A stretch of 64,000 nucleotides of DNA from Candidatus Poribacteria bacterium (GTDB taxonomy: Bacteria > Poribacteria > WGA-4E > PCPOR2b), in NCBI GenBank assembly GCA_965215015.1, contig OZ244042.1:2880001-2944000 (forward strand). The letters run 5' to 3'. Of the stretch, positions 25,451 through 63,095 are shown one piece after another. Position numbers and translations under genes: made by a program. The stretch's first letter is position 1; every line of letters begins with the position of its first letter. Below the pieces are notes generated by a model. It was not told the DNA's origin and did no database searches. It worked only from the letters and a program-made list of their open reading frames with translations.

Positions 25451-25644
25451 ACCATCGAACAGGTAGCTTAACTGACACGCTTATCAACTAATGGTGCTAG
25501 TTTGCAACTGTTGATACCTAACGTGAAACTTGAAAACTATCTGTTCATGGGTTCATCAATGGACTTCTGAACTAGTGAACTCTTGAACGATGTGGAAACG
25601 AAATCCTCACCAACTTGCACCAAAGATTATCAGGAGGCTGTATT

Positions 25645-26433
25645 ATGGCGAACCTACACGGACCCGTTTTGACCGATGACGAACTCGCAACATTTCACGA
25701 GCAGGGATATGTGCGTTTGGGCAAAGTTGCGCCGGAGGGAGAGATTGAGGCTCTCTGTCAGCGGATCGACGATATTATGCTGGGGAAGATCCGCTACGAC
25801 AATATGCTCATGCAGCTATGTCCGTCAGCCGGTCGCCCGGAATTATCGAAGCAGACAAAAGAGTTTAAGGGATCTACGCTGAAATACCGAAAAATTCAGG
25901 ACCTTGATCAGGATCCACTGTTTCTGCCGTACATACGACACCCGCTGTTTCGGGACATCACACAGAAGATTATTGGAGAAGAAGTTTCCGCTTTTCGGAC
26001 GATGTTTTTCAACAAGCCGGCACAGCAAGGGGTCCTCATCAATTGGCATCAGGACGGTGCCGGTGGCTGGGGGCTAAGCATTCCTCCAAAGGTGACAATC
26101 TGGACCGCCCTAGATCCGACCGGTATCGCCAACGGCTGTCTACAGATTATTCCGGGGTCGCACAAAAGCCTCATTCCCGAAAAAGGCGACCAATTATCTC
26201 CGGAGGAACGGGCGATTCACGCCCCGGACGAAAAGCGAATCTATCTGGAAATGGAGATGGGAGAGGTGGTGCTGCTCCATAATTGGACCTTACATCGCTC
26301 AGAGATTAACACCACAAACCGTCCACGGCGCGGATTCAGCGTGTGTTACATTGATGCAGCAACCTGTCAAGTCTCCACCGGACGGGGGTATCCGAAAGTG
26401 TTTCCGGAGTATGTGCCGGTGGAGGAGGTATAA
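25645..26433 (+). CDS. Phytanoyl-CoA dioxygenase (PhyH) family Fe/2OG enzyme
   Basis: WHQD, NGCLQIIPGSH, LHRS. Confidence 0.9.
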   Translation: MANLHGPVLTDDELATFHEQGYVRLGKVAPEGEIEALCQRIDDIMLGKIRYDNMLMQLCPSAGRPELSKQTKEFKGSTLKYRKIQDLDQDPLFLPYIRHPLFRDITQKIIGEEVSAFRTMFFNKPAQQGVLINWHQDGAGGWGLSIPPKVTIWTALDPTGIANGCLQIIPGSHKSLIPEKGDQLSPEERAIHAPDEKRIYLEMEMGEVVLLHNWTLHRSEINTTNRPRRGFSVCYIDAATCQVSTGRGYPKVFPEYVPVEEV

Positions 26434-29786: not shown

Positions 29787-30923
29787 ATGGAAAGATTTTT
29801 ACCGATCGCAGACTCAACGCTTTACCCCGTCTACGAGAAAGTTCAGGCGGATGAACGCCTCTCTTTTGAAGATGGGGTAAGGCTCTATGAAAGCCCGGAT
29901 ATCAACGGCGTTGGCTATCTCGCCAACATCGTGCGAGAACGACAGAACGGGAATCTTGCCTACTATAACCTGAACCAACATATCGACTACTCGAATGTGT
30001 GTATCTTACATGCACGTTGTCACTTTTGTGCGTTTGCACGGAAAAACATACAGACCGCCGGGGCATGGGAGATGAGCATTGATGAATTTCTGGATAAGGC
30101 GATGTATTCCATTGACCACGGCTGCACAGAAATTCACAGCGTCGGCGGCCTGCATCCGAAGCTACCGTTTGAATACTATCTCGACATGCTTCGCGGATTG
30201 AAGCAGCGGATGCCACAGGTTCATCTCAAGTTTTTCACGGCTGTGGAAATTCATCATTTTTCACGGATATTCAAGATGTCAATTGAGGAGGTCCTGATTG
30301 CATTGCGCGAGGCAGGGCTAGATTCGCTGCCCGGCGGCGGGGCGGAGATTTTCGCGGAAGAGACACGAGAAAAAATCTGTCCCGGCAAATTGAGCGCGGA
30401 AGGGTGGCTTGAGGTACATGACATTGCTCACCGGCTGGATATCCCAACGAATGCGACGATGCTCTATGGACATCTCGAAACGACTGAAGATCGGGTGGAT
30501 CACCTGATTCGCCTTCGCGAGCAGCAGGACAAATCGGGCGGTTTTGTCACCTTTATTCCGCTTGCCTTCCATCCCGAAAACACGCGAATGGATTATCTAC
30601 CGAGCACATCCGGTTTGACCGATTTGCAAAATGTAGCGGTGTCGCGTCTATTGCTTGACAATTTCCCACACATCAAAGTGTATTGGATTATGACCGGACT
30701 GAAGACCGCCCAAATCGCGCTGAGTTTTGGGGCAGATGACATTGACGGCACCGTAACGGAAGAGAAGATTACACACATGGCAGGTGCCGACACCCCAGAG
30801 GCAATCTCAGCAGAAGAGATTACCCAGCTAATTGAGGAGGCCGGTCGCATATCCGTTGAGCGCGACACGCTCTATAACGAAATTATCCGAGAAGGAAATC
30901 AATGGCACAGAAAAGCCGCGTGA
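29787..30923 (+). CDS. mqnE: Aminofutalosine synthase (radical SAM, futalosine menaquinone pathway)
   Basis: EIHSVGGLHP, TAVEI, LPGGGAEIF, ATMLYGH, GADDIDGTV.EEKI.HMAG; adjacent mqnA. Confidence 0.9.
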   Translation: MERFLPIADSTLYPVYEKVQADERLSFEDGVRLYESPDINGVGYLANIVRERQNGNLAYYNLNQHIDYSNVCILHARCHFCAFARKNIQTAGAWEMSIDEFLDKAMYSIDHGCTEIHSVGGLHPKLPFEYYLDMLRGLKQRMPQVHLKFFTAVEIHHFSRIFKMSIEEVLIALREAGLDSLPGGGAEIFAEETREKICPGKLSAEGWLEVHDIAHRLDIPTNATMLYGHLETTEDRVDHLIRLREQQDKSGGFVTFIPLAFHPENTRMDYLPSTSGLTDLQNVAVSRLLLDNFPHIKVYWIMTGLKTAQIALSFGADDIDGTVTEEKITHMAGADTPEAISAEEITQLIEEAGRISVERDTLYNEIIREGNQWHRKAA

Positions 30924-31714
30924 AAGTTGGGGCGGTTTCGTTTCTCAACACGAAACCACTGATTCACTCCCTTGTGGAAGACCCTCAATTCCCCGGCAGC
31001 GAGGCAATAGAACTTAGCTTAGCAGTACCAAGTCGTTTAGCAACGGAATTAAAGGACGGAGCTCTTGACGTTGGATTGATTCCAATCATTGAATACTTCC
31101 GAACGGACAACGAATATAGAATTATACCGGACATTTCAATCTGCTCGCGGGGCCCCGTTTTGAGCATCCAACTGTTCAGTCATGTGCCTATTCCTGCTAT
31201 CCGTCACGTTGCGCTTGACACCAGTTCACGCTCATCTCGTGCGCTTGTACAGATTGTGCTCGCCGAGAAATATAACCTACATCCCGAATTTTATTCCTGT
31301 CCACCCACGATCAATCCGCAAGCGGCAGATACAGACGCAGTGCTATTAATCGGGGATGCGGCATTGCGAAGACTCGGTGCAACGGATTATACCGTAGATC
31401 TTGGTGAGGAATGGACTACATTGACAGGGCTACCGTTTGTTTATGCTTGCTGGGTAGCACGGGGAGAGGTTGAGTTAGGACAAGCTCCCCAAACGCTTTT
31501 GAAGGCAAAAGAATGTGGCATTAATAAAGTGCCTGAGATTGCCCGAATCGAGTCCCAAAGACTCGGTTTTCCCGAAACGCTCTGTCGAGATTATCTGACC
31601 AAGCATATTTTCTACGAACTTAGTGATTCAGAAATTGTTGGATTGATGAGGTTCTATGAGCTTGCGGTGAAATATGATCTTGCCCAACCCGATGTGAAAC
31701 TGAGGTTTGTATGA
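30902..31714 (+). CDS. mqnA: Chorismate dehydratase
   Basis: VSFLNTKPL, SSRSS, LLIGDAAL, DLGEEW...TGLPFVYA. Confidence 0.92.
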   Translation: MAQKSRVKVGAVSFLNTKPLIHSLVEDPQFPGSEAIELSLAVPSRLATELKDGALDVGLIPIIEYFRTDNEYRIIPDISICSRGPVLSIQLFSHVPIPAIRHVALDTSSRSSRALVQIVLAEKYNLHPEFYSCPPTINPQAADTDAVLLIGDAALRRLGATDYTVDLGEEWTTLTGLPFVYACWVARGEVELGQAPQTLLKAKECGINKVPEIARIESQRLGFPETLCRDYLTKHIFYELSDSEIVGLMRFYELAVKYDLAQPDVKLRFV

Positions 31715-31724
31715 ATTTCTGACG

Positions 31725-31826
31725 ATGTGGGCACCTAACTGGAGGTTGGTCTCCGAACGGCTTTTCGAGACAGCAGAACCGAATTGAATGAAGAAGATTC
31801 AACTATTGAAGGAATTGGAGTTGTGA
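31725..31826 (+). pseudogene. 102-bp gene-tail remnant, diverged direct repeat of 37079-37180
   Basis: MWAPNWRLVSERLFETAEPN*MKKIQLLKELEL* vs MWLCNTGWLISDRLFETAEPGRMKQIQPQRELG*. Confidence 0.6.
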
Positions 31827-31895
31827 AGAGTAACCCCCCGCCTACAGCTCGCATCAATACAAACATATAGGATTCATTCTAACTTCTCAGTGCTA

Positions 31896-32834
31896 TTATG
31901 AGTTTGACTTGATATCTCCCCACGGCTTTGGAGCCACCCCCTGCACCGAGACCGGCAGCTGGCTATTCCATTCGCTGGGGGAGGTATCATTCGCCGGATG
32001 ATTGGTCAACTGGGTTAGTTGACCGTCTGAGAGACGGAACCTGTAGATATCCCATTTCTCACCTTCCTTCCTCAAAGCAACGAGAATTGACTTCCCATCG
32101 GCGCCCCATGCGGCGGCTGTCAAATCCATTTTCGGCAGCGGCACCGGCTCACGCTTGACCACCTCACGCCTTATCGGTGCGAGTGTAGCGATAATCATGG
32201 TTGTGTCTGTCACCAAAGCCCCGATGGCTTCAGCATACAGAATCTGTTTCCCATCGGGCGACCACCCGTCCACAAACATCACGGCACCGGGTCTCGGTTG
32301 GCTGACCTGCCATCGCTGGGTGCCGTCGGCGTTCATCACATAGACCTGGCGTCCCTGGTCTATGACCCCCTCAAAGGTGATGTGCTTCCCATCAGGAGAC
32401 CACCGAGGACGTGAGGCAAACGCCAAACGAGTCAGTTGCTTCACGTTGCTGCCATCGGTGTCCATCACATAAATGTTCAGGGCACCATCCCTGTCGCTTG
32501 CAAAGGCAATCTGCTTCCCATCGGGCGACCAGTTAGGGGAGGACTCAAACGCTGGATGACGGCTCAGGTTGCGCGGGTTGCTGCCATCGGCGTCCATCAC
32601 ATAAATCTCCTGATTCTCATCCCGCAGACTCGCAAAGACAATCTCGCGACCGGTGGGGGACCAGGAGCATTGAAAATCCCCTGCCTCGTTGTGTGTCAGT
32701 CGGGTTTGACCTTTTCCCGTTGAACTCATCACGTAGATTTCAGAATTTCCATCCCGAGAAGCTTTAAACACGATTTTGCTGTGGATGGTGCTCGTTATCA
32801 ACCAAAGGCTGATAACGAGAGCTGGGAATCGCAT
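31896..32834 (-). CDS. Secreted TolB-like (PD40) beta-propeller, array copy 4
   Basis: Signal peptide, repeated P.WSPDG..I.F.S.RDG..EIYVM, C-terminal PVS.QG..PKPWGDIK. Confidence 0.9.
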   Translation of the reverse strand: MRFPALVISLWLITSTIHSKIVFKASRDGNSEIYVMSSTGKGQTRLTHNEAGDFQCSWSPTGREIVFASLRDENQEIYVMDADGSNPRNLSRHPAFESSPNWSPDGKQIAFASDRDGALNIYVMDTDGSNVKQLTRLAFASRPRWSPDGKHITFEGVIDQGRQVYVMNADGTQRWQVSQPRPGAVMFVDGWSPDGKQILYAEAIGALVTDTTMIIATLAPIRREVVKREPVPLPKMDLTAAAWGADGKSILVALRKEGEKWDIYRFRLSDGQLTQLTNHPANDTSPSEWNSQLPVSVQGVAPKPWGDIKSNS

Positions 32835-32836
32835 AA

Positions 32837-33019
32837 CTAATCCTCTTTTGTAAATCGGACGTTTACAGCATTTACCTGTCCATCCCCCAGATGGTCATTT
32901 CCGTCAAAGAGTGAAACCCGTGTATACGCTGTAATATCATATTGTACGCCCTCATCTAAATTAGCCACACTGACTCCCCGCCAAGCTGAAAATTTTTCTG
33001 TTCGCATCAATACGAACAT
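32837..33019 (-). other. Orphan C-terminal cassette of the 176-aa gene (allele LDEGVQY), 60-aa ORF
   Basis: Last ~48 codons match 36310-36840; stop abuts the propeller ATG. Confidence 0.85.
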
Positions 33020-33048
33020 ATAGGATTCATTCTAACTTCTCAGTGTTA

Positions 33049-33987
33049 TTATGAGTTTGACTTGATATCTCCCCACGGCTTTGGAGCCACCCCCTGTGTC
33101 GAGACCGGCAGCTGGCTATTCCATTCGTTGGGGGAGCCGTCACCCGCCGGATGATTGGTCAACTGTGTCAGTTGACCGTCTGAGAGGCGGAACCTGTAGA
33201 TATCCCATTTCTCACCCTCCTTCCTCAAAGCAACGAGAATTGACTTCCCATCGGCACCCCATGCGGCGGTTGTCGAATCCATCTTCGGCAGCGGCACCGG
33301 TTCATGCTTGACCACCTCACGCCTTATCGGTGCGAGTGTAGCGATAATCACGGTTGTGTCTGTCACCAGGCCGCCGACGGATGCCTTATACAGAATCTGT
33401 GTTCCATCGGGCGACCATCCCGCCGTAAACATCAAGGTGCCGGGTCTGGGTTGGCTGACCTGCCATCGCTGGGTGCCGTCGGCGTTCATCACATAGACCT
33501 GGCGTCCCTGGTCTATGACCCCCTCAAAGGTGATTTGCTTCCCGTCAGGAGACCACCGAGGACGTGAAGCAAACGCCAAACGAGTCAGTTGCTTCACGTT
33601 GCTGCCATCGGTGTCCATCACATAAATGTTCAGGGCTCCATCCCTATCGCTTGAAAAGGCAATCTGTTTCCCATCAGGCGCCCAGTCGGGGGAAGACTCA
33701 AATGCTGGATGACGGCTCAGGTTGTGCGGGTTGCTGCCATCGGCGTCCATCACATAAATCTCCTGATTGTCATCCCGTAGACTGACAAAGACAATCTCTC
33801 GTCCGTTGGGAGACCAATCGGGGATAAAATCCGCGGCCTCGTTGTGCGTCAACCGTGTTTGAGCTCTTCCCGTTGAACTCATCACGTAGATTTCATTGTT
33901 TCCATCCCGAGAAGACCCGAACACGATTTTGCTGTGGACTTGATTCGTGACCAGCAAAAAGCTGGTCACGAGAATTGAGAGGCGCAT
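33049..33987 (-). CDS. Secreted TolB-like (PD40) beta-propeller, array copy 3 (distinct signal peptide)
   Basis: As copy 4; N-terminus MRLSILVTSFLLVTNQ differs from the other three. Confidence 0.9.
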   Translation of the reverse strand: MRLSILVTSFLLVTNQVHSKIVFGSSRDGNNEIYVMSSTGRAQTRLTHNEAADFIPDWSPNGREIVFVSLRDDNQEIYVMDADGSNPHNLSRHPAFESSPDWAPDGKQIAFSSDRDGALNIYVMDTDGSNVKQLTRLAFASRPRWSPDGKQITFEGVIDQGRQVYVMNADGTQRWQVSQPRPGTLMFTAGWSPDGTQILYKASVGGLVTDTTVIIATLAPIRREVVKHEPVPLPKMDSTTAAWGADGKSILVALRKEGEKWDIYRFRLSDGQLTQLTNHPAGDGSPNEWNSQLPVSTQGVAPKPWGDIKSNS

Positions 33988-33989
33988 CG

Positions 33990-34199
33990 CTATTCTCTCC
34001 TCTTTGTAAATCGGACGTTTACAGCATTCACCTGTCCATCCCCCAGATGGTCGTTTCCATCAAACAGCGAAATGGTCGTTTCCATCAAAGAGCGAAACCC
34101 GTGTATATGCTGTGATATCATAATCCGTGCCATTCTGTAAATTAGCAACACTGACTCCTTGCCAGCCTGAAAATTTTTCTGTTCGATCAATACAAACAT
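33990..34199 (-). pseudogene. Orphan C-terminal cassette (allele LQNGTDY) frameshifted by a 25-bp tandem duplication
   Basis: GWQGVSVANLQNGTDYDITAYTRVSLFDGNDH; duplication 34047-34071/34072-34096. Confidence 0.85.
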
Positions 34200-34215
34200 A
34201 TAGGATTCAGTGATA

Positions 34216-35154
34216 TTATGAGTTTGATTTGATATCCCCCCACGGCTTTGGAGCCACTCCCTGTGTCGAGACCGGCAGCTGGCTATTCCATTCGCTGGGG
34301 GAGCCGTCACCCGCCGGATGATTGGTCAACTGGGTCAGTTGACCGTCTGAGAGACGGAACCTGTAGATATCCCATTTCTCACCTTCCTTCCTCAAAGCAA
34401 CGAGAATTGACTTCCCATCGGCACCCCATGCGGCGGATGTCAAATCCATCTTCGGCAGCGGCACCGGCTCACGCTTGACCACCTCACGCCTTATCGGTGC
34501 GAGTGTGGCGATAATCATGGTTGTGTCTGTCACCAAAGCCCCGATGGCTTCAGCATACAGAATCTGTGTTCCATCGGGCGACCACCCGTCCACAAACATC
34601 ACGGCACCGGGTCTCGGTTGGCTGACCTGCCATCGCCGGGTGCCGTCGGCGTTCATCACATAGACCTGGCGTCCCTGGTCTATGACCCCCTCAAAGGTGA
34701 TACGCTTCCCGTCAGGAGACCACTGGGGGCGTGAAGCAAACGCCAAACGAGTCAGTTGTTTCACGTTGCTGCCATCGGTGTCCATCACATAAATGTTCAG
34801 GGCTCCATCCCTATCGCTTGAAAAGGCAATCTGCTTCCCATCAGGCGACCAATAGGGGGCAGCATCAAACGCCGGATGACGGCTCAGGTTGCGCGGGTTG
34901 CTGCCATCGGCGTCCATCACATAAATCTCATCGTTCCCGTCCCGGAGACTGACAAAGACAATCTCTCGTCCGTTGGGAGACCAATCGGGGGTAAAATCCG
35001 CGGCCTCGTTGTGCGTTAACCGTGTTTGACCTTTTCCCGTTGAACTCATCACGTAGATTTCAGAATTTCCATCCCGAGAGGCTTTAAACACGATTTTGCT
35101 GTGGACGGTGCTCGTTATCAACCAAAGGCTGATAACGAGAGCTGGGAATCGCAT
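34216..35154 (-). CDS. Secreted TolB-like (PD40) beta-propeller, array copy 2
   Basis: As above. Confidence 0.9.
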   Translation of the reverse strand: MRFPALVISLWLITSTVHSKIVFKASRDGNSEIYVMSSTGKGQTRLTHNEAADFTPDWSPNGREIVFVSLRDGNDEIYVMDADGSNPRNLSRHPAFDAAPYWSPDGKQIAFSSDRDGALNIYVMDTDGSNVKQLTRLAFASRPQWSPDGKRITFEGVIDQGRQVYVMNADGTRRWQVSQPRPGAVMFVDGWSPDGTQILYAEAIGALVTDTTMIIATLAPIRREVVKREPVPLPKMDLTSAAWGADGKSILVALRKEGEKWDIYRFRLSDGQLTQLTNHPAGDGSPSEWNSQLPVSTQGVAPKPWGDIKSNS

Positions 35155-35156
35155 AA

Positions 35157-35339
35157 CTAATCCTCTTTTGTAAATCGGACGTTTACAGCATTCACCTGTC
35201 CATCGCCCAGATGGTCATTTCCATCAAAGAGCGAAACCCGTGTATACGCTGTGATATCATAATCCGTGTCATCCCGTAAATTAGCAACACTGACTCCCTG
35301 CCAAGCTGAAAATTTTTCTGTTCGCATCAATACGAACAT
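35157..35339 (-). other. Orphan C-terminal cassette (allele LRDDTDY), 60-aa ORF
   Basis: Homologous to the 3' end of 36310-36840 except for a 5-codon patch. Confidence 0.85.
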
Positions 35340-35368
35340 ATAGGATTCATTCTAACTTCTCAGTGTTA

Positions 35369-36307
35369 TTATGAGTTTGACTTGATATCTCCCCACGGCT
35401 TTGGAGCCACTCCCTGTGTCGAGACCGGCAGCTGGCTATTCCATTCGCTGGGGAAGGTATCATTCGCCGGATGATCGGTCAACTGGGTTAGTTGACCGTC
35501 TGAGAGACGGAACCTGTAGATATCCCATTTCTCACCCGCCTTCCTCAAAGCAACAAGAATTGACTTCCCATCGGCACCCCATGCGACGGTTGTCGAATCC
35601 ATCTTCGGCAGCGGCACCGGTTCATGCTTGACCACCTCACGCCTTATCGGTGCGAGTGTAGCGATAATCACGGTTGAGTTTGTCACCAGGCCGCCAACGG
35701 ATGCCTTATACAGAATCTGTGTTCCATCGGGCGACCATCCCGACGTAAACATCAAGGTGCCGGGTCTGGGTTGGCTGACCTGCCATCGCTGGGTGCCGTC
35801 GGCGTTCATCACATAGACCTGGCGTCCCTGGTCTGTGACCCCCTCAAAGGTGATACGCTTCCCATCAGGAGACCACTGGGGACGTGAAGCAAACGCCAAA
35901 CGAGTCAGTTGCTTCACGTTGCTGCCATCGGCGTCCATCACATAAATGTTCAGGGCTCCATCCCTATCGCTTGAAAAGGCAATCTGTTTCCCATCAGGCG
36001 ACCAATAGGGGGCAGCATCAAACGCCGGATGACGGCTCAGGTTGCGCGGGTTGCTGCCATCGGCGTCCATCACATAAATCTCATCGTTCCCGTCCCGCAG
36101 ACTGACAAAGACAATCTCTTGTCCGTTGGGAGACCAATCGGGAGTAAAATCCCCTGCCTCATTGTGTGTCAGTCGTGTTTGACCTCTTCCCGTTGAACTC
36201 ATCACGTAGATTTCAGAATTTCCATCCCGAGAAGCTTTAAACACGATTTTGCTGTGGACGGTGCTCGTTATCAACCAAAGGCTGATAACGAGAGCTGGGA
36301 ATCGCAT
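35369..36307 (-). CDS. Secreted TolB-like (PD40) beta-propeller, array copy 1
   Basis: As above; directly coupled to the 176-aa gene. Confidence 0.9.
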   Translation of the reverse strand: MRFPALVISLWLITSTVHSKIVFKASRDGNSEIYVMSSTGRGQTRLTHNEAGDFTPDWSPNGQEIVFVSLRDGNDEIYVMDADGSNPRNLSRHPAFDAAPYWSPDGKQIAFSSDRDGALNIYVMDADGSNVKQLTRLAFASRPQWSPDGKRITFEGVTDQGRQVYVMNADGTQRWQVSQPRPGTLMFTSGWSPDGTQILYKASVGGLVTNSTVIIATLAPIRREVVKHEPVPLPKMDSTTVAWGADGKSILVALRKAGEKWDIYRFRLSDGQLTQLTDHPANDTFPSEWNSQLPVSTQGVAPKPWGDIKSNS

Positions 36308-36309
36308 AA

Positions 36310-36840
36310 CTAATCCTCTTTTGTAAATCGGACGTTTACAGCATTCACCTGTCCATCCCCCAGATGGTCATTTCCGTCAAAGAGTGAAACCCGTGTATAC
36401 GCTGTAATATCATATTGTACGCCCTCATCTAAATTAGCCACACTGACCCCCTGCCAGCCCCAATGGTCGCTGTATCCATTTGCAGGCACATCTGGTCCGA
36501 ATTCTTCGATGATATCCTGCTTAGGGCTGCCATCTGTGTTGTAAGTATTCGTGCCGTCGGTATTGACGATAGTATGATTAAACTCATACTTCACATCGAT
36601 TGCAAAGGGGCCATTTTCGATCAGATAGTGATGGAAACTCTCCGTGCGTTGGGTTGAGCCGCCGATATACCTGAGCTGGCTCGCTGTGGCACTCCAACTG
36701 ATACCGTCAATGGTGCCGCCGTTCGGTGATCCGGGGATGTTTCTAACAATCAACACACCTGCCATCCCCAAGACCAATATGCCGAGACCTATAAACACTT
36801 TAGGGTATTTCTTTGCCAATTTCATGAATTGTTGGTTCAT
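36310..36840 (-). CDS. Membrane-anchored beta-rich (Fn3/Ig-like) hypothetical protein, head gene of the array
   Basis: N-terminal basic + TM segment KKYPKVFIGLGILVLGMAGVLIVR; NLDEGVQYDITAY resembles an Fn3 tyrosine corner. Confidence 0.75.
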   Translation of the reverse strand: MNQQFMKLAKKYPKVFIGLGILVLGMAGVLIVRNIPGSPNGGTIDGISWSATASQLRYIGGSTQRTESFHHYLIENGPFAIDVKYEFNHTIVNTDGTNTYNTDGSPKQDIIEEFGPDVPANGYSDHWGWQGVSVANLDEGVQYDITAYTRVSLFDGNDHLGDGQVNAVNVRFTKED

Positions 36841-37012
36841 AAGTGCCAGATGGTAAGCTCAAACCTTCTATGCGGCAAAAGGTTTAAGCCCGATAGATAT
36901 ACCCAAACCGTAACTGTTTTACGTTGGGGTATATGACAGCGTACATCAGACATATGCTTCTAGTCAAGCAAAAAAATAGGGTTCTCGTTTTAGTATGTGA
37001 AGATTTTTTCTA

Positions 37013-37040
37013 TTGACAACATTTGTCCATTGGGTATAAT
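37013..37040 (+). promoter_or_regulatory. Consensus sigma70 promoter
   Basis: TTGACA-16-TATAAT. Confidence 0.6.
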
Positions 37041-37046
37041 GAACGA

Positions 37047-37180
37047 ACTGGCAGCACCCGGACCTGACTTGGGCAAAGATGTGGCTGTGCAATACCGGAT
37101 GGTTGATCTCCGACCGGCTTTTCGAGACAGCAGAGCCGGGGCGGATGAAGCAGATTCAACCGCAGAGGGAATTGGGGTAA
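37047..37180 (+). pseudogene. Gene-tail remnant (possibly PhyH C-terminus), homologous to 31725-31826
   Basis: NWQHPDLTWAKMWLCNTGWLISDRLFETAEPGRMKQIQ; shared nt core CGGCTTTTCGAGACAGCAGA. Confidence 0.55.
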
Positions 37181-37228
37181 ATTACTGCACACAAAAATTT
37201 AATTGAATCTATACCTGTTTATTAGAAC

Positions 37229-37456
37229 CTAATTGGAGAGGCTACCAAGTTGTTAGGGGTTAATCCTCAAACATTACGGCGTTGGGTGGAGTGTATATGA
37301 CCTCAAGCGTGGGTTCAACAGCGTCAAAGATGAGCTCTTCCCATGATGGTGCCGCAACTTTCACAGAATGCGTCAAAGAATGTTATTCATGACCTTGCTG
37401 ATGTTATTAAACGCTGGAGAAAAGGACAGAACCAGTTTCCCCGTTGCAAAAAATGA
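37229..37456 (+). mobile_element. Collapsed IS607-family remnant (tnpA HTH fragment joined to tnpB N-terminal fragment)
   Basis: LIGEATKLLGVNPQTLRRW (IS607 TnpA HTH) followed by SVYDLKRGFNSVKDELFP* and QLSQNASKNVIHDLADVIKRWRKGQNQFPRCKK (TnpB-like). Confidence 0.7.
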
Positions 37457-37588
37457 TTGTAGTAAGAGGATACCAGACAAAAGCTGAGGGGCACTGCAAA
37501 AGGACTTCGCCTCTGGGAAAGGTTAGCCGCTGGCAGGCAGTCGGAATACCACTGACAAAAAACTTCGCAAATCGAAGGTATAAACAGC

Positions 37589-38866
37589 ATGATCGAAACG
37601 ACACTCTTTGATTTAACCTACGAAAGTCGGAAGCGTCCCCTGTTGAAACAGGTATTGGAGAGATTACGTCCAATCTACTCTACGGACGAACTGAAGGTCT
37701 TACGCATTGACAGTGAAAGTCGAGATGTTCTCTCTCTCCGTTCTGGGCGAGGATTTGTCAATCGAGATATTCTCGAAACGGTGCTCGGCAACCTATTGGA
37801 ATGTGTAGCCCCCGGTTCCCACAACGCCCCGCGTCCAGAAAATCATAAGGGCGAACTGTCGGAAGCAATCGAAGAGGTCGCGGACCAACTGTACGCGGTG
37901 ATTGCCCAATCCTTCTTGGCAGTCACCGACGAAAGCGAGTTGGAAAGCCGTGCATTGGACACAACGTTTGCGCTGCTCTGGGAGTTGCCTCGACTGAAAC
38001 AGCGCGCCCTATGGAACCGTTTTGCCTCGCTGAAAGATCCGGCGGTGTGGGATGCCTATCTGCTCCACAGTGGAGTTTCCCGTGAAAAACTTGTCGAATT
38101 GGACATCAGGGCGCAGGTAGATGAAGCCATTCTAAAACGGGAGTTCCAACCCTATCGAAATCTCTTGGACACTCTTGATTTGGCTTTCGCTTTTGACTAC
38201 CAGATGCAGTTGGTTGTCAGTACGTACCCCGGTTGGCGAGTGCTCTTCTACCACGATGTTGGCTATCTCTTAACTCGATCCGGTCCCATTAAGGGCACCA
38301 TCAATCTCTACCGAACCCCTGTACCGCTTTTACCCCGCGCGATTTCTGAACTTGGGGGCCGTTACTACCAAGCAGATCTCCACCCCGAAACACAGATTGG
38401 TGATGCTAATTTCTTGGAGCATCCCCATCGCGGCTTCACCACCGGACAAACCGGGGTTATTGGCTCTGGCTGCGTCATCTATCCGTGTACGCTTGGTGGC
38501 TTGAGTGTGAGGGTCAAACAGCGTCACCCGATTCTTGGCGACTTCGTGCAGATTGGCACGGACGCAAGTCTGCTGGGGCCGGTACGAATCGGGGACCACT
38601 CTACCGTCGGCACAAATACAGAGATCTACGGTTTTGTTGAGATAGATACCAGCTGCCATATCGGTTCTTCAGTGGTCATCGGGACCATCCGGAGCGAATC
38701 CATCAAACCGGGCGTGATTCGTCTTGGCAAGAACGTTTCGGTGGGCGACGGGACGATTATCGAAAACACCTTGGCGATAGATTTGATTATTCCGGATCAG
38801 TCAGAGATTCCCGCACGCAGCCATGTCTCTAACGATGGTTTTGGACATCCCAGATATGTCGCATAA
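37589..38866 (+). CDS. Divergent serine O-acetyltransferase-like (LbH) protein with long N-terminal domain
   Basis: YPGW, LPRAISE, DLHPETQIG...LEH, TLGG...QRHPILGD, extended hexapeptide repeats. Confidence 0.7.
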   Translation: MIETTLFDLTYESRKRPLLKQVLERLRPIYSTDELKVLRIDSESRDVLSLRSGRGFVNRDILETVLGNLLECVAPGSHNAPRPENHKGELSEAIEEVADQLYAVIAQSFLAVTDESELESRALDTTFALLWELPRLKQRALWNRFASLKDPAVWDAYLLHSGVSREKLVELDIRAQVDEAILKREFQPYRNLLDTLDLAFAFDYQMQLVVSTYPGWRVLFYHDVGYLLTRSGPIKGTINLYRTPVPLLPRAISELGGRYYQADLHPETQIGDANFLEHPHRGFTTGQTGVIGSGCVIYPCTLGGLSVRVKQRHPILGDFVQIGTDASLLGPVRIGDHSTVGTNTEIYGFVEIDTSCHIGSSVVIGTIRSESIKPGVIRLGKNVSVGDGTIIENTLAIDLIIPDQSEIPARSHVSNDGFGHPRYVA

Positions 38867-38877
38867 AGGGAGGATGC

Positions 38878-40443
38878 ATGAAAAAGATACAACGCGCCCT
38901 AATCAGTACCTATGATAAAACGGACCTCATAAATCTTGCCAAAAACCTTGTTCAGAAAGGGGTGGAAATCTTTTCCACAGGCGGCACCGCAAACACGCTC
39001 CGCGAATCGGGGATTGAGATTCATGAGGTGTCCGACTATACCGGTTTCCCGGAAATGCTTGATGGGCGGGTGAAAACGCTCCACCCGAAGATTCACGGTG
39101 GTTTGTTAGCAATCCGGGATAATCCCGACCATGTGGCTCAGGCATCAAACCAGGGAATTGAATTTATCGATCTCGTCGTTTCCAATCTCTATCCATTTGA
39201 GGCAACAATTGCTAAGGAAGGGGTCGAACTCGCCGAGGCGATTGAAAACATTGACATCGGCGGGCCCGCAATGATTCGGGCGGCTGCCAAAAATTATCGT
39301 GATGTCGCCATCCTCACGGATCCACAGCAGTACCTCGATATCATCGCAGAACTTGACGCAAACGATGGTTGCCTTTCAGAGGGGACCCGGTTTCAATTGG
39401 CTAAAGCAGCGTTTGCACATACCGCCCATTATGACGCAGCGATTTCGCGTTACCTCGCTAATTTGGATGCTCCCGATGCGGCCTTTCCAGATGCGCTCGA
39501 TCTGCAGTATGAGAGGGCCCAAAGCCTCCGGTATGGTGAAAATCCCCATCAGCGTGCGGCGTTCTATCGGACCCATGCTTCACCTGAACCGTGTGCGGCG
39601 TGGGCAAATCAACTGAGTGGTCAACCGCTTTCGTTTAATAACATCCTCGACTTGGAGGCGGCGATCGAAATCGTTAAGGACTTCTCCGAACCGACCTGCG
39701 TGATTATCAAGCACAACACCCCGTGCGGATTGGCAACTGCCGCTAGTTTGGAAGGGGCATTTAACGATGCCCTCGATTGCGATCGAACCTCCGCGTTTGG
39801 TTCCATCATCGGTTTGAATCAAAAAGTCTCCTTAAAAGTGGCAAACACCATTCGTAAGGCAGCAAACGCAGGCATCAAAGTTGATGCTATTATCGCTTCA
39901 AGCTACACGCCGAAAGCATTGAGTGCGCTCTCCCGCGTGAAGCGTCGACCAATTCTCGAAATAGGTGAACTTCGGCAAGATTCCTCAATTAAGCAGATTC
40001 GGAACGTTATCGGCGGAGTCCTTGTCCAGGACCGGGACCTCCATGAAATGACACCCGATGACCTAAAGGTTGTCACAGAGCGTCAACCGACAAACGAGGA
40101 GATTAAATCCCTGTTGTTTGCGTGGAAAGCGTGTAAGCATGTCAAATCAAACTGTGTGTTGCTTGCTCAAGGCTCAAAGACGGTCGGCATTGGTGCTGGG
40201 CAGATGAGTCGCGTTGATTCGTGTATCATCGCGGCGCGGAAGGCAGGGGACCGGGCGAAAGCATCCGTCCTCGCTTCCGATGCCTACTTTCCATTCCCGG
40301 ATGGCGTTGAAATCGCCGGTGAGGCAGGCGTGCGGGCAATCATTCAACCCGGTGGCTCGGTGGGCGATCCGCCTGTGATTGAGACCGCAGATCGGTATGG
40401 TATGGCGATGGTCTTCACCGGCGTCCGGCATTTCCGGCATTAG
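38878..40443 (+). CDS. purH: Bifunctional AICAR transformylase / IMP cyclohydrolase
   Basis: [40 protein letters not shown]. Confidence 0.98.
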
Positions 40444-41363: not shown

Positions 41364-42080
41364 ATGATCAGACCCACCGAAGCCCAAACGACGCAATGGG
41401 AAGACAAAGGTTACCTTGTCTTCGAGAACGCGATTCAGGGTGATGAGTTGAAGCGACTTCAAGATGCTTTTGATTATTGGGCGGATGAGTGCAAGCCCGC
41501 GTGGTTAGACCGCGTGGAGGCAGGCGAAGCGGCTGCATCGTTTTATGACATCTCCGATCCCTTTGCAAAAGATGAAATCTTTGTAGATATAATCGATCAC
41601 CCTAGCTATTACGGCAGCCTGATGGCATTTACAGATGATGATCTGATTCTGCTAGGCCCGCAGGTTCGCACTGTCCCGCCGGGCCCCGTCTGTTATTCCG
41701 GTTGGCACCCCGATGTCCCACAGAGCAATCCGCTGCACATCAAAGTCCAAGTTTACGTGAACGATGTCGAACCCGGGGCAGGAGAATTTGCTTTTGTGCC
41801 CGGGAGCCACAAACCCGATGCGGGCCCTTACTCCAGAACGCATCGGCTAGAAGCGATGCCCGGTCATAAACGGTTTCCGGGAAAAGCAGGCACCGCTATC
41901 ATGTTCAACTCATACGGTTGGCATACCGCCATGGACAACCACACAGACACGCCACGAAAATCGATCATCCTCATTTACGAGAAACGGACGCCGGGCCGCG
42001 TAGGTCCAAAGCGGTTTGTCTCGATTGCTCACCTCTGCACGACACCGGAACGGCGCAAACTTTTCGGTTTGGAGGAATGA
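41364..42080 (+). CDS. PhyH-family dioxygenase
   Basis: WHPD, FVPGSH, WHT. Confidence 0.88.
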   Translation: MIRPTEAQTTQWEDKGYLVFENAIQGDELKRLQDAFDYWADECKPAWLDRVEAGEAAASFYDISDPFAKDEIFVDIIDHPSYYGSLMAFTDDDLILLGPQVRTVPPGPVCYSGWHPDVPQSNPLHIKVQVYVNDVEPGAGEFAFVPGSHKPDAGPYSRTHRLEAMPGHKRFPGKAGTAIMFNSYGWHTAMDNHTDTPRKSIILIYEKRTPGRVGPKRFVSIAHLCTTPERRKLFGLEE

Positions 42081-46888: not shown

Positions 46889-48225
46889 TCATTTACCCCC
46901 ATTTTTTTTTGGTTATAGATTTGAGATATTTTTATGATTTAGGATAGTGAGAATACCTGTCATTAAGGGTGTTTGCATGTATCTCCCCTGCACAGTGGGA
47001 GTGTGAACCATGGATTGAGACACCACCCGCTCCACGCCTCAGCCACCACTCGCTTTATCACGGTAATGAGTGAGTATATTTTAGTCCGTGTGTTGAATGT
47101 TTTTGCCCATCGATCGCCTGACTTTTGATAGGTGATAAACAGTAAGCCATAACTGATACAAGCTAAGAGCCATAACAGGTTGATGCGGGCTTTTGACGGT
47201 TTTTTGAGTCTCAAGCTGCCAAAGCCAAAACCGGTCTTGATGTCCCGAAAGCCGTGTTCAATCTGCATTCTTCGCTTATAATAGTGGTATATTTGACGCC
47301 CCGTCAGATGACTTGAAATCAGATACATCGGTTCAGCCAACCGCGCCTCTCTGACGACATACAGGTTGAGTCGAATCGGCTCGGTTAAGTGATAGAGAAT
47401 CTGTGGATAGAACCCCGTTTCCTGCAACTGTTCTGCCTTTTTAACAGTGCCCCAGACGGTCATGCGCGCGTTACGACACACGCGGATGATAAACGGAATC
47501 CGTTGTGTCTTGAGAAACTTTATCACATATTTAGCACGCGCGAAGCCTCTATCGAATATCAACGTGGCTTCACACGGGGGCGGTAAAATCGCTTCTGTCT
47601 TTTGATACAGTGTGAGACAAAAGCGTTGGATAATCTCATTATGGCTGGTATAGGTCAACTGTTGAATCTCAGCATCGGTGTAGAGGTGCCAGTAGATAGG
47701 AACCGCCCGGCGGCGGAACGGCACCGCGGCAACAATCGCTTTGAAATGGCCAAACACCTGGGTTTCATCCACTAAAATCAACCGGCGTCCGGCGTGACGT
47801 TCACAGACCCGGCGGAGCACAAAGCCCAACCAGCACCCCATCACCGCGTCAATAGGAAAGCGACGAGCTAAGAATCGAAGCAGGCGTTTCTGTTTCGTCT
47901 TTTGATGTTTGACGGCTACTGGCAAGCGTAAAGCAATTTCGTTTATCCGAAACTTCTGGGCCAACACAATGGCTAGGATCGTGAGTATCAGGTTTTTTAA
48001 CGCCGGTTTTTTCAATACGGGGTTGAAAATCTCGGTCAGAGTGGTTATCATAGAACTGGGATTCACCCGCTTATGGCGGTGGGTGCCTTTCATAATACCT
48101 CCTTGTTTAAAACAATGGTTATTTTATACAGGGAGGTATTTTACCATATTTGATAACCCTTTCTCACATCTAGACCTCGCAAAAACAACCAACATTACAA
48201 CTCTAAAAAAAATGGGGGTAAGTGA
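46889..48225 (-). mobile_element. IS4-family insertion sequence
   Basis: TIRs TCA(T/C)TTACCCCCATTTTTTT at both ends enclosing the transposase; no target duplication seen. Confidence 0.85.
46963..48093 (-). CDS. IS4-family DDE transposase
   Basis: VDET, FDRGF, Y-x2-R-x3-E-x6-K (YKRRMQIEHGFRDIK). Confidence 0.9.
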   Translation of the reverse strand: MKGTHRHKRVNPSSMITTLTEIFNPVLKKPALKNLILTILAIVLAQKFRINEIALRLPVAVKHQKTKQKRLLRFLARRFPIDAVMGCWLGFVLRRVCERHAGRRLILVDETQVFGHFKAIVAAVPFRRRAVPIYWHLYTDAEIQQLTYTSHNEIIQRFCLTLYQKTEAILPPPCEATLIFDRGFARAKYVIKFLKTQRIPFIIRVCRNARMTVWGTVKKAEQLQETGFYPQILYHLTEPIRLNLYVVREARLAEPMYLISSHLTGRQIYHYYKRRMQIEHGFRDIKTGFGFGSLRLKKPSKARINLLWLLACISYGLLFITYQKSGDRWAKTFNTRTKIYSLITVIKRVVAEAWSGWCLNPWFTLPLCRGDTCKHP

Positions 48226-52761: not shown

Positions 52762-53325
52762 TTATTTTCCCTGATGTTGATCAACCGATATGAAAGATGA
52801 CGTTCGCCGATTAGAAGATAGGTGTGGTTTAGGGTATTGATTGATTGGGACAATCTCAAACTCTACGAGCAGTGCTTGTTCATCTCTCGGCGATTGGACA
52901 AGCGTCAGCACATTGTCCGACAGAAGCGGGAGTTGCGGTTGGTACAATGTGATACTTACAACTGTCGCAATCAACGCTAATGAGGTTACAACAGCATAGG
53001 GACGAACCCGTGTTCGGAAACTGTAACGCATCCATGCAAACGACGATTCCAATCGCCGTAAGATACGACGCACCGCAGAGATTTGCTCCTTTTCAATTAC
53101 AGTGATTGCTGCAGCTCGACACATCAGGTCCGGCAGGAAATTGTCAGATGGCTTCACTGGATCGAGCTGGTGAAGGATCTCGCTTGTCTGCCGGAGGCGC
53201 ATTACTTCATGTGCACAACTTGGACACCGCTTGAGGTGCCACTGAATCAGTTGAATCGTCCACAAGGGCATCTCACGGTCTATATAAGCGGATAGCTGTG
53301 GTTGAACATTTTCACACTTTAGCAT
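52762..53325 (-). CDS. Zinc-finger (HxxxCxxC) anti-sigma factor with TM
   Basis: CENV...LSAYIDRE...HLKRCPSC; single TM; downstream of the ECF sigma. Confidence 0.85.
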   Translation of the reverse strand: MLKCENVQPQLSAYIDREMPLWTIQLIQWHLKRCPSCAHEVMRLRQTSEILHQLDPVKPSDNFLPDLMCRAAAITVIEKEQISAVRRILRRLESSFAWMRYSFRTRVRPYAVVTSLALIATVVSITLYQPQLPLLSDNVLTLVQSPRDEQALLVEFEIVPINQYPKPHLSSNRRTSSFISVDQHQGK

Positions 53326-53983
53326 GGGAACTCTCTCCAATTCCAACTTCTGTTAGGAGTGTTTTCATATTTTGGCGGGCGCGATGGATAAGTGATTTCA
53401 CGGCACTAACAGAGCACTCAAGAACTTCTGCGATTTCATCGTACCTTAGATTTTGATAACTGACAAGCGTCAATGCTAAACGCTGATTTTCAGGCAAGCG
53501 GTTAATTGTTTGTTGAATGATGATTTGTTGTTCCTTTTTTTCGTAGACTTCGTCGGGCAGCTGGCTGACATCCTGCATTAGCTCAAGATAGCTGAGGTCC
53601 TCATTGTCAGATACAAGATCATCGAGATAAGCCATATTCCGTCGCTTCCGATTCCGAATTTCGTTCCGGCATAAATTCGTTGCAATGAGATAGAGCCAAT
53701 TTTTGAATCGACACTTGGGCTCATACCGGTCCGCACTCCTGAAAACTCGCAGAAATGTCTCCTGCGCTAAGTCTTCAGCACGGTGATAGTCGCCTATAGA
53801 TCGATAGATGAAATTGGTGATGAGATCTTTATAACGCATCACAATTAGCTCGAAAGCACTCATGTCGCCGTTTCGACACTTCATCATCAATTCTTCGTCG
53901 GAGGTACGCAAAACGCCTGCTCCTTCTTTTCGGTAGTAGGAATTTTGAGGCATTGATACAAAATTATAACATCTAAATAGCAA
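53312..53983 (-). CDS. ECF RNA polymerase sigma factor
   Basis: SDEELM, AEDLAQETF, WLYLIATN, YDEIAEVL.CS..AVKSLIHRAR; real start probably ~53911. Confidence 0.93.
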   Translation of the reverse strand: MLFRCYNFVSMPQNSYYRKEGAGVLRTSDEELMMKCRNGDMSAFELIVMRYKDLITNFIYRSIGDYHRAEDLAQETFLRVFRSADRYEPKCRFKNWLYLIATNLCRNEIRNRKRRNMAYLDDLVSDNEDLSYLELMQDVSQLPDEVYEKKEQQIIIQQTINRLPENQRLALTLVSYQNLRYDEIAEVLECSVSAVKSLIHRARQNMKTLLTEVGIGESSHAKV

Positions 53984-63051: not shown

Positions 63052-63095
63052 TGGTCAAATAGTGCAGCACTCTGTGGCAAGGGGTTTGGTAAATC

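Follow-up and report, generated by a model that had tools for sequence, protein, structure and literature searches.

An array in the chromosome of Candidatus Poribacteria bacterium consists of one complete gene, here called the head gene, and four genes for secreted beta-propellers, with a partial copy of the 3' end of the head gene (a cassette) in front of each of the last three propellers. The array arose by tandem duplication, its propellers are mosaics of one another, its cassettes have been kept under amino-acid constraint, and cassette alleles are found in the full-length head genes of sister strains. The explanation that we prefer, with slightly more confidence than doubt, is that the locus serves as a cassette store for a two-protein envelope binding module, made of an Ig-like head and a TolB-like propeller, whose tip alleles have been exchanged.

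Anatomy and origin of the array

We analysed the window (the whole 64,000-nucleotide stretch of contig OZ244042.1), in which profile searches identified purH, an acetyltransferase-like gene and mqn genes as neighbours of the array. Open reading frames (ORFs) and repeats confirmed the outline drawn in the first-pass annotation, that is, a minus-strand gene for a 176-aa membrane-anchored head, four 312-aa secreted PD40 propellers, three partial heads and a regular spacing (Table 1). The repeat unit occurs four times, with start-to-start distances of 1153, 1167 and 1153 bp, and the units are 93–96% identical to the reference copy over 300-nt stretches. The head stop and the ATG of propeller 1 are separated by 2 nt. 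Of the ORFs between the propellers, whose last 47–49 codons match the head end, two are 60 aa long (35339..35157 and 33019..32837) and one, with its ATG at 34199 and its stop at 33990, is 69 aa long. The layout that had been claimed, in which a full gene is succeeded by partial 3' copies and every copy has a partner gene of its own downstream, is therefore real. A 78-nt direct repeat brackets the whole module; its two copies are 81% identical and are the only two found in the genome, and in a related species the repeat also flanks the module on both sides.

Table 1. Features of the array and of the repeat that brackets it, in window coordinates.
Feature	Position	Strand	Description
Head gene	36310..36840	minus	176 aa; ORF listing
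Propeller 1	35369..36307	minus	312 aa; ORF and PD40; hydrophobic signal-like N-terminus, TolB-like beta-propeller
Junction 1	35307..35368	minus	47 nt (35368..35322) plus 15 nt of filler (35321..35307); contains the ATG of a 60-aa ORF
Cassette 2	35157..35306	minus	final 49 head codons and stop; loop allele RDDTD
Propeller 2	34216..35154	minus	312 aa; ORF and PD40
Junction 2 and cassette 3	33990..34215	minus	loop allele QNGTD; damaged
Propeller 3	33049..33987	minus	312 aa; most diverged copy; different signal peptide
Junction 3 and cassette 4	32837..33048	minus	loop allele DEGVQ; repeat family D7
Propeller 4	31896..32834	minus	312 aa; ORF and PD40
Terminal 47-nt "linker" copy	31849..31895	minus	original sequence 3' of the propeller; junction similarity stops after it
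78-nt bracketing direct repeat, upstream copy	37101..37178		repeat family D12
78-nt bracketing direct repeat, downstream copy	31744..31821		repeat family D12

The three internal junctions are identical in kind, and their linker is seen once more behind the last propeller, indicating that the units are products of one tandem duplication junction. This linker, which had been described as a conserved element of about 60 nt, is indeed present in the units, but it consists of a 47-nt sequence, found after the last propeller as well, and 15 nt of filler. At the syntenic locus of a related species (L013), the gene order is purH, hexapeptide transferase, head and one propeller, mqnA and mqnC, and the best-matching locus of a second species (L014), for which no flank matched, likewise has one head and one propeller. 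In a phylogenetic tree, the four propellers group together (support 100/99), with the two orthologues as their sisters (98/91). We conclude that tandem amplification, specific to this lineage, produced the array in the Candidatus Poribacteria chromosome. The notion of a conserved, designed system has to be given up, since the array comes from one illegitimate tandem duplication in this lineage and L013 and L014 are single-unit loci. Moreover, the ORF listing gave no head-like ORF between the propellers of arrays A, C, D and G of the same genome, indicating that partial head copies are not required in the family. We propose that a single illegitimate join duplicated a 1153-bp segment, which runs from about head codon 128 to 47 nt beyond the propeller stop, and that unequal crossing-over later raised the number of copies to four; the partial heads would then be by-products of the position of the join, and neither domains nor independent genes.

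It is barely credible that the array is an assembly artefact in which strain variants of one unit have been set side by side. Among the assembled contigs of public sequencing runs, short-read contigs do break within the array and none bridges two units; however, the genome is a single closed contig of 5.94 Mb, and the junction sequence is present as DNA in the run contigs. The unit-specific pieces 33866–34032, 34023–34267 and 35175–35329 occur without a difference in contigs of run X1, and 33866–34032 and 35175–35329 also occur without a difference in run X5, which belongs to another study. Since the runs of two studies yielded unit-specific contigs, the array is no peculiarity of a single assembly. 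Word depths in X1, which are rough, were 7.0–9.5 for the unit-specific pieces versus 9.1–9.5 for the unique flanks, and were thus near those of the flanks rather than fractions of them.

Head, propellers and cassettes

The structural model of the head has an N-terminal membrane helix (residues 13–29) followed by an ectodomain, a nine-strand beta-sandwich (residues 40–176) of the Ig/Fn3 kind, in agreement with the first-pass description of an Fn3-like tip. Profile searches with the head returned no Pfam and no NCBIfam family, and no domain family common to the 78 family members scanned was found at E ≤ 1; these results support the statement that the head has no toxin domain. The head family comprises 137 representative sequences among 1.84 billion and was found in 63 of the 151 Poribacteria genomes sampled, and our best reading is that it is a new, Poribacteria-specific Ig-like family without any annotation. 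The cassette corresponds to half of strand 6 and the last three of the nine strands in the head model, and on that model it is not a domain.

All four propellers match Pfam PD40 (E 3e-30 to 1e-35; 104–121 bits versus a cut-off of 20.9), and the propeller model, with a mean pLDDT of 87.8, consists of repeated four-strand units. PDB TolB chains match the propeller at E 1e-23, and the closest solved chain is the uncharacterised Agrobacterium protein 2ojh (E 1.4e-26). The propellers resemble TolB, which is the periplasmic beta-propeller of the Tol-Pal system, in their PD40 repeats, in their hydrophobic signal-like N-terminus and in having TolB as their best named-family match (TIGR02800, 310.7 bits, with the best stretch at profile positions 247–404 of 418). 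By contrast, this score is below the family cut-off of 343.15, only the propeller half is present and the N-terminal TolB domain is missing, and there are ~31 propeller paralogues per genome, outside any tol-pal operon. The pN/pS ratio of the propellers is below 1 even in their most variable strands (0.61).

Variation in the head is concentrated in a hypervariable loop at residues 138–142 (DEGVQ), for which we counted 17 alleles in 46 distinct sequences of the clade; in these 46 sequences, the five variable residues are bracketed by invariant W[QR]G..VANL and YDI[ST]AYT. In a second array of the same genome (cluster B), it is mainly the homologous loop that sets two truncated heads apart from the full head, and two codons there have three alleles each. 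Comparison of the four head ends over 41 non-loop codons gave 11 synonymous events versus 1 non-synonymous event, for 29 synonymous and 94 non-synonymous sites (binomial P 1.2e-6; 3.2e-4 allowing for mutation bias), and the differing loop codons are all non-synonymous. Synonymous divergence of the head ends is as high as that of the propellers. The 11:1 pattern is impossible in drifting copies, indicating that some regular contact with selected sequence is needed. Cassette 4 differs from the head end by two synonymous changes and one non-synonymous change (Q130R), besides junction codon 128. In cassette 3, the linker has deletions of 13 nt and 1 nt, and a 25-nt internal duplication creates a stop in the head frame, such that this cassette would truncate the head if it were copied whole; its ORF nevertheless stays open up to the stop 2 nt before propeller 3, mostly outside the head frame. 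A scan for promoter consensus sequences listed no site in the junctions and placed the best minus-strand sites upstream of the head, consistent with the partial copies, which lack the 5' end, being promoter-less.

Mosaicism, shared alleles and proposed exchange

A check of the head allele in relatives, which the first-pass annotation had proposed, revealed that full-length genes carry differing alleles that match cassettes. P0138, the full-length head (171 aa) of a sister strain, is 91% identical overall to the head, and its last 49 residues are identical to the cassette 2 protein. P0162 and P0163 are distinguished solely by the loop and the two final residues, and each of the two alleles is found in truncated ORFs as well; overall, five of the seven loop alleles of nine full-length heads are also present in truncated copies. 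In a contig of run X6, head sequence 37130..36462 is joined straight to 35308..35244, skipping exactly 1153 nt, such that sequence of the cassette 2 type is attached to a head. Such shared alleles could stem from inter-strain recombination or common ancestry, without transfer from cassette to head in this genome.

Within the array, units 1 and 4 are 98% identical over 300 nt across the head end and the propeller start (family D7), with unit 2 at 92% identity there, indicating a recent conversion tract common to cassette 4 and the head end. Two-by-two site patterns among the propellers cluster in blocks along the gene, with 14 sites that join propeller 1 to 2 and 3 to 4, 26 that join 1 to 3 and 2 to 4, and 12 that join 1 to 4 and 2 to 3. 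Tips and propellers had been suggested to switch as pairs; however, the loop DEGVQ precedes both propeller 1 and propeller 4, which are 87% identical, indicating that the pairs are not fixed.

We suggest that the head would be a membrane-anchored, Ig-like protein whose partner is a secreted TolB-like PD40 propeller, the two being encoded in a two-gene envelope operon. The partial heads would have escaped decay because gene conversion, through ordinary homologous recombination, keeps trading sequence between them and the expressed head end, perhaps with a contribution from homologous DNA of other strains. The array would thereby act as a passive store in which alleles of the five-residue loop and the C-terminal tail lie silent beside diversified propellers and can be moved into the expressed gene. 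The head tip may bind the propeller, or the two may bind a common ligand, in the periplasm or envelope; the variation may serve recognition of a host, a phage or a neighbour; and the ORFs before each propeller may aid its translation. An extension of this proposal would be a variable recognition system of Poribacteria, in which the acidic five-residue tip loop and the tail are swapped by gene conversion from silent copies and the propeller binds the tip or shares its ligand, strains thus varying their envelope recognition by sponge host, phages or neighbours. We put this extension forward as a rather unlikely speculation.

The chief alternative to a cassette store is that the partial heads are remnants of segmental duplication without a role, and that their conservation and shared alleles come from inter-strain recombination or non-adaptive homogenisation. 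The junction anatomy of one illegitimate event, the lack of an array at the corresponding locus in two related species and the broken cassette 3 all fit such an account. So do N-terminally truncated heads before single propellers, seen in six of six loci from other genomes that were picked because the head profile matched just part of a head, and fragments of sigma-54 activator genes fused to head ends in cluster J and at L044, which indicate rampant untidy duplication. By contrast, the excess of synonymous events in the head ends, at propeller-like synonymous divergence, is incompatible with drift, and the same loop is the variable part in the second, independent array (cluster B); we therefore regard this alternative as possible but doubtful. 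We see far less reason to treat the 60–69-aa ORFs as genes in their own right, encoding small proteins or translated leaders for coupled propeller translation. Each of the three reads without interruption from the linker ATG up to a stop placed 2 nt short of the propeller ATG, the 1-nt deletion and 25-nt duplication of cassette 3 add up to 24 nt and keep its frame open, and the propeller's AAGAGGA sits within the final head codons. However, a fragment with 3.5 of the nine modelled strands could not fold alone, cassette 3 is mostly out of the head frame, and a leader role would leave the amino-acid conservation unexplained. In addition, the linker ATG has no clear ribosome-binding site when read from the sequence, which makes translation of the cassette ORFs doubtful, and beyond the last propeller this ATG starts a 43-aa ORF that runs over unrelated sequence.

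Orphan-module arrays of the Rhs, CdiA and MafB type have a full gene and then partial 3' copies, each with a downstream gene, and recombination can exchange the gene end. The array described here has the same layout, with three partial 3' copies that each have a partner, and it has a hypervariable tip with a variable partner gene directly downstream. It could accordingly be read as a polymorphic toxin–immunity conflict (for the concept of orphan C-terminal modules with immunity genes, see PMC3482391), with the head end as a swappable effector tip, the propeller as the cognate protein that protects against it and the partial copies as orphans that have been displaced. We consider this highly improbable: there is no toxin, secretion, trafficking or large delivery domain in a head of 176 aa with one membrane helix, and no secretion system nearby; the downstream gene encodes a secreted propeller; what is swapped amounts to 3.5 beta-sandwich strands, with variation in five loop residues and the tail; the junction is a duplication scar rather than a conserved pre-toxin motif; and cognate pairing was not seen, loop and propeller alleles not being kept together. 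Targeted diversification by a retroelement (DGR) or a shufflon-like site-specific recombinase would accord with a variable stretch at a gene 3' end and near-identical repeats close by, but we give it practically no weight. No match to RVT_1 was found in the genome, while control genomes gave matches, and the loop differences involve all bases and are not confined to adenines; these two results count against a DGR target. Neither a recombinase nor a reverse transcriptase was found among the 37 window ORFs scanned, in which the sole mobile gene was a DDE transposase 10 kb away.

Known systems and significance

The pilE/pilS system of Neisseria generates variation by gene conversion from silent cassettes. 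In Borrelia, as described in PMC11499132, conversion from the silent vls cassettes feeds vlsE. As in these systems, a single expressed gene lies beside promoter-less partial copies that are ~90% identical to part of it, and variable patches are flanked by invariant sequence able to guide conversion. Cassette alleles also occupy the expression site of other strains (P0138 and the X6 contig). In contrast to vls and pilS, there are only three cassettes here, one of them broken; each brings a complete, presumably expressed propeller gene; the variable part is five residues and a tail; the array is a young tandem duplication that is absent from related species; and the organism is a sponge-associated symbiont rather than a pathogen facing antibodies.

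Metagenome surveys of sponge symbionts list PD40 and TolB-like propellers among the enriched repeat classes (PMC9531527, PMC5735121), a setting that matches the source organism, a member of the Poribacteria. These surveys count domains, and their passages on such repeats describe no head partner, tandem array or partial copy. Diversified beta-propeller lectins are also part of the umbrella toxin particles of Streptomyces (PMC13274773, PMC11062931), where diversified paralogues are reported to give binding specificity. By contrast, umbrella particles use another propeller family, are secreted by Gram-positive bacteria, contain a toxin subunit and are not known to have a store of partial copies. 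We take the likeness as a possible lead for function only.

Antibody-evading pathogens and toxin–immunity conflicts are the main settings in which stores of silent partial copies that supply an expressed gene are known. The same genetic logic is present here in an uncultivated sponge symbiont and in an unannotated protein family, and this head family is tied to the PD40/TolB-like propellers that are enriched in sponge microbiome surveys. An adaptive exchange would reveal how a recognition surface is varied by symbionts and would offer a first clue to the function of the propeller expansions. Otherwise, the array would be a clean natural case of the birth of a cassette system, in which a single untidy tandem duplication sets a gene end with a hypervariable loop beside the expressed copy.

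Layout and assembly of the array

We recovered the head gene, four propeller genes and head-end ORFs between the propellers (see table). A repeat finder identified four unit copies with start-to-start spacings of 1153, 1167 and 1153 nt and 93–96% identity to the reference copy over 300-nt stretches. The inter-propeller ORFs are 60, 69 and 60 aa in length and end in the last 47–49 codons of the head, indicating that the first-pass annotation had described the sequence layout correctly. PD40 repeats were detected in 4/4 propellers (104–121 bits, Pfam cut-off 20.9); the head matched no family in Pfam or NCBIfam.

The same 47 nt follow every propeller stop, including that of the last propeller, and the order at all three internal junctions is identical: these 47 nt, 15 nt of filler, and then head sequence from about codon 128. 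The shared junctions and the recurring 47 nt bear the signature of one illegitimate tandem duplication, expanded afterwards by unequal crossing-over. The duplicated segment would have run from within the head gene to a point 47 nt beyond the propeller. Unit 3 carries a 13-nt deletion and a 1-nt deletion in its linker, and a 25-nt internal duplication in its cassette that introduces a stop in the head frame; these deletions and the duplication account for the spacing of 1167 nt.

The genome is a single closed contig of 5.94 Mb. Unit-specific stretches were present with zero differences in contigs from two public sequencing runs of different studies, at 33866–34032, 34023–34267 and 35175–35329 in run X1, and at 33866–34032 and 35175–35329 in run X5. 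Word depth in X1 was 7.0–9.5 for unit-specific pieces, near the values of 9.1 and 9.5 for the unique flanks. The order of the copies rests on the closed assembly, because no run contig bridges two units. Joints in X5 with sides shorter than 30 letters were discounted as probable repeat artefacts.

A terminator scan detected no terminator-like site between units, the sole such site lying inside the head gene on the opposite strand, and a promoter scan returned only weak promoter-like sites. The array and head probably constitute one operon. We observed no Rfam match at E≤0.1 across 30000–39000, and a scan of 37 window ORFs revealed no recombinase or integrase, the closest mobile gene being that of a DDE transposase. 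RVT_1 had 0 matches in the whole genome but did match control genomes, indicating that no reverse transcriptase was found.

Two copies of a 78-nt direct repeat, 81% identical and the only two found in this genome, bracket the whole head–propeller module, and the repeat also lies on both sides of the single-unit module at L013, a locus of a related species. The repeat has no notable fold (z-scores +1.1 to −1.75), and may be a scar of the entry of the module into the site. The window also contains a sigma factor with its anti-sigma partner, and four PhyH-family dioxygenase paralogues scattered over its length.

Coordinates of the array, its surroundings and related loci (window positions unless a contig or locus is named; G000 C1 is the contig of this genome)
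Feature	Coordinates	Strand	Basis or remark
Head, 176 aa	36840..36310	minus	ORF
Propeller 1, 312 aa	36307..35369	minus	ORF, PD40
Propeller 2, 312 aa	35154..34216	minus	ORF, PD40
Propeller 3, 312 aa	33987..33049	minus	ORF, PD40
Propeller 4, 312 aa	32834..31896	minus	ORF, PD40
Head and propeller array	31849-36840	minus	ORF listing
47 nt after last propeller	31895..31849		
78-nt direct repeat	31744-31821 and 37101-37178		
78-nt repeat, related species	L013: about 4782-4860 and 6657-6741		
DDE transposase	46963-48093	minus	
ECF-type sigma factor and zf-HC2 anti-sigma partner	52762-53983	minus	
Regions listed with the PhyH-family paralogues	25615-26433, 41364-42080, 62209-63950		
Cluster B (L019)	G000 C1:1790800-1796300		
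Cluster C (L020)	G000 C1:4938300-4947800		
Sigma-54/head chimera (L027, L039)	G000 C1:1102200-1104400		
Sigma-54/head chimera, second genome	L044:6587-6853		
Decayed unit (L042)	G000 C1:763730-765105		

Predicted structures of the head and propellers

The head model, built from 78 sequences, has a mean pLDDT of 89.9 (about 96–98 over residues 40–176) and consists of one N-terminal membrane helix followed by a nine-strand beta-sandwich. Fold searches returned only generic Ig/Fn3-like sandwiches, among them the MspA rim domain (Z 9.9, rmsd 3.3 over 120 residues), RbmA (Z 8.5), the RsgI4 sensor domain (Z 7.7) and, with Foldseek, ApaG (E 1.3e-5, TM 0.35–0.45). A PDB sequence search with the head profile gave 0 matches at E≤10, and the best ESM Atlas score of 0.79 is a lead only. 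In the model, the part of the head present in the cassettes (residues 128–176) comprises half of strand 6 and strands 7–9; it is not a domain, and independent folding would not be expected.

In the model of the propeller (mean pLDDT 87.8), units of four strands recur, and residues 296–312 form a disordered tail. By sequence, the nearest solved chain is 2ojh, an uncharacterised Agrobacterium protein (E 1.4e-26), followed by TolB (E 1e-23); the score against the TolB family model (310.7 bits) falls short of the cut-off (343.15), and the propeller lacks the N-terminal TolB domain. Two studies list PD40 and TolB-like propellers among the repeat classes enriched in sponge microbiomes (PMC9531527, PMC5735121).

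The four propellers differ at 60 of 312 residues. Within the mature part, 30 of the 50 variable residues fall in the eight residues before the conserved blade W, a stretch that forms the first strand of each blade in the model, or in the loop that follows the next strand; the same intervals hold 84 of 243 invariant positions (Fisher p 8e-4). The pN/pS ratio is 0.61 before the conserved W and 0.26 elsewhere, a rise that hints at, but does not prove, positive selection. The variable positions overlap the ones that vary in five further arrays of this genome (odds ratios 2.4–4.6, p 0.005–0.05), and by analogy with TolB-like propellers in general they may line the binding face.

Lineage and wider family

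The window belongs to the core chromosome and includes the dcw cluster, mqn genes and purH. L013 is syntenic with the array locus on both flanks and has one head (65% identical) and one propeller (81%); L014, the best-matching locus of a second related species, has one head (71%) and one propeller (82%), with no flank matched. Both loci were found using a 3-sequence alignment as query; a 17-sequence alignment gave no conserved stretch, and a single head found no relative among the genome contigs. A phylogeny of 31 propellers places the four copies in a single clade (100/99) whose sister group is the L013 and L014 orthologues (98/91), indicating that the amplification is specific to this lineage. 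Pairwise dS among the copies is 0.15–0.25, with dN/dS of 0.21–0.44, and the amplification is not very recent.

A tblastn search of the genome with propeller 1 gave 38 matches of at least 280 residues in 18 clusters; by table count, 31 of these, including the four described here, have at least 47% identity to propeller 1 and belong to 13 clusters. Head paralogues are found directly upstream of propellers or propeller arrays at 10 or more places in the genome. A head-family profile matched 137 representatives at E≤0.001 among 1.84 billion proteins, 17/20 genomes of the genus, and 63/151 sampled genomes of the phylum in 9/22 genera, with the most matches in one genome (18) being in this one. An earlier reading from a single-protein search, that the family is confined to the genus, was overturned by the profile search across the phylum. 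Neither protein patterns nor a degenerate DNA pattern spanning the loop region gave any match in metagenome contigs. Directly upstream of the head we found a sigma-54 activator at two loci and a sigma-70 region-4 protein at two others; the remaining head loci examined have unrelated neighbours.

Other loci of the family vary in organisation. Cluster C consists of one head, with a sigma-54 activator directly upstream, and then seven tandem propellers separated by gaps of 214–430 nt; two of these propellers group with other clusters in the tree, and this array thus has a mixed origin. In-frame chimeras in which a sigma-54 activator fragment (Walker A region) is joined to a head end directly before a propeller occur in two genomes, and in cluster F, another propeller locus of this genome, repeated NtrC-type HTH-end fragments follow the propellers. 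A decayed unit has a head remnant (profile positions 76–164) and then a propeller split over two frames.

Constraint and exchange among the partial copies

Comparison of the four head ends covered 41 codons between 129 and 174, with the hypervariable loop (residues 138–142) excluded. We observed 11 synonymous events and 1 non-synonymous event, with 29 and 94 sites available, respectively (binomial P 1.2e-6; 3.2e-4 if 40% of mutations are synonymous). Within the loop (DEGVQ in the head, RDDTD in cassette 2, QNGTD in cassette 3 and DEGVQ in cassette 4), every differing codon is non-synonymous. Drifting copies of such age would hold many replacements, indicating that the cassettes kept contact with sequence under selection. 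This argues against the partial head copies being plain debris, a reading that we consider less likely despite several observations in its favour: two related species lack an array at the corresponding locus; cassette 3 is broken; the ORF listing shows no head-like ORF between the propellers of four further arrays in this genome (A, C, D and G); and truncated heads precede single propellers at 6/6 loci of other genomes, which were chosen for partial matches.

Consistent with maintenance by recombination, our preferred reading, sites along the propeller gene that divide the four copies two versus two fall into blocks. Fourteen sites pairing copies 1 and 2 lie at nt 215–302 and 428–451, with one outlier at nt 896; 26 pairing copies 1 and 3 lie mostly at nt 539–712; and 12 pairing copies 1 and 4 lie at nt 134–154 and 818–850, apart from a single outlier at nt 443. 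Across a 300-nt stretch that takes in the head end and the initial 160 nt of the propeller, identity is 98% between units 1 and 4, as compared with 92% for unit 2, indicating that the expressed head end shared a recent conversion with cassette 4, in either direction. In X6, a run from a diverged strain, compared over 31700–37200, the flanks and the 5′ part of the head are about 95% identical to the window and several pieces inside propellers 2 and 3 are 99–100% identical, such that the array interior is more alike between strains than its surroundings.

Recording which cassette allele the full heads of relatives carry had been proposed as a check, and a search of 5.8 billion proteins gave a positive case: P0138, a 171-aa head that is 91% identical overall, has a final 49 residues identical to cassette 2. 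In line with P0138, an X6 contig joins the 5′ part of the head (37130..36462, 34 differences in 668 letters) directly to 35308..35244, skipping exactly one unit; the protein and the contig may come from the same material. Two 159-aa heads from another species of the clade, P0162 and P0163, are identical outside the loop (TDDID or TNGTD) and the final two residues. Both versions also occur as truncated ORFs, one of them represented by P0159 and P0164 and the other by P0160. The loop motif was present in 46 distinct sequences (43 from other assemblies, the head, and cassettes 2 and 4), with 17 loop alleles among them. Nine full-length heads carry 7 loop alleles, of which 5 also occur in truncated copies; for two of these five, DEGVQ and RDDTD, it is a cassette of this window that supplies the truncated example.

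A 113-aa truncated head with a conserved foreign leader (starting MYAIIYPNAK; P0141, P0142, P0144 and P0169–P0181) recurs in many assemblies, on contigs of up to 9.7 Mb, and carries several loop alleles, which suggests an older partial copy formed at a different junction, about residue 84. Among 29 family genomes, P0169, of this form, matched nothing except the window's two intact cassettes and the full heads in three of the genomes.

Cluster B is a second array in which the whole unit, comprising an upstream region, head and propeller, is triplicated. Its two extra heads have lost the membrane helix and N-terminal half, each by a different in-frame deletion. Across the 64 retained codons, two synonymous and five non-synonymous sites distinguish the three copies; of the latter, three fall within the counterpart of the 138–142 loop, where two codons have three alleles each. 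Cluster B repeats the pattern of the array described here.

Neither the head family nor such arrays were found in the accessible portions of the literature on Poribacteria PD40, TolB and eukaryotic-like proteins and on polymorphic toxin orphan/immunity beta-propellers. The array resembles vls and pilS arrays in logic but is without dedicated machinery, and resembles orphan toxin modules in layout but is without a toxin. We propose that one untidy tandem duplication set a hypervariable head end and a propeller paralogue beside the expressed copy, and that homologous recombination among units, probably with a contribution from recombination with DNA of other strains, would keep the partial copies in good order and move loop alleles between silent and expressed positions. 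On this simplest account of the sequences, the array would be, in effect, a small passive cassette store.
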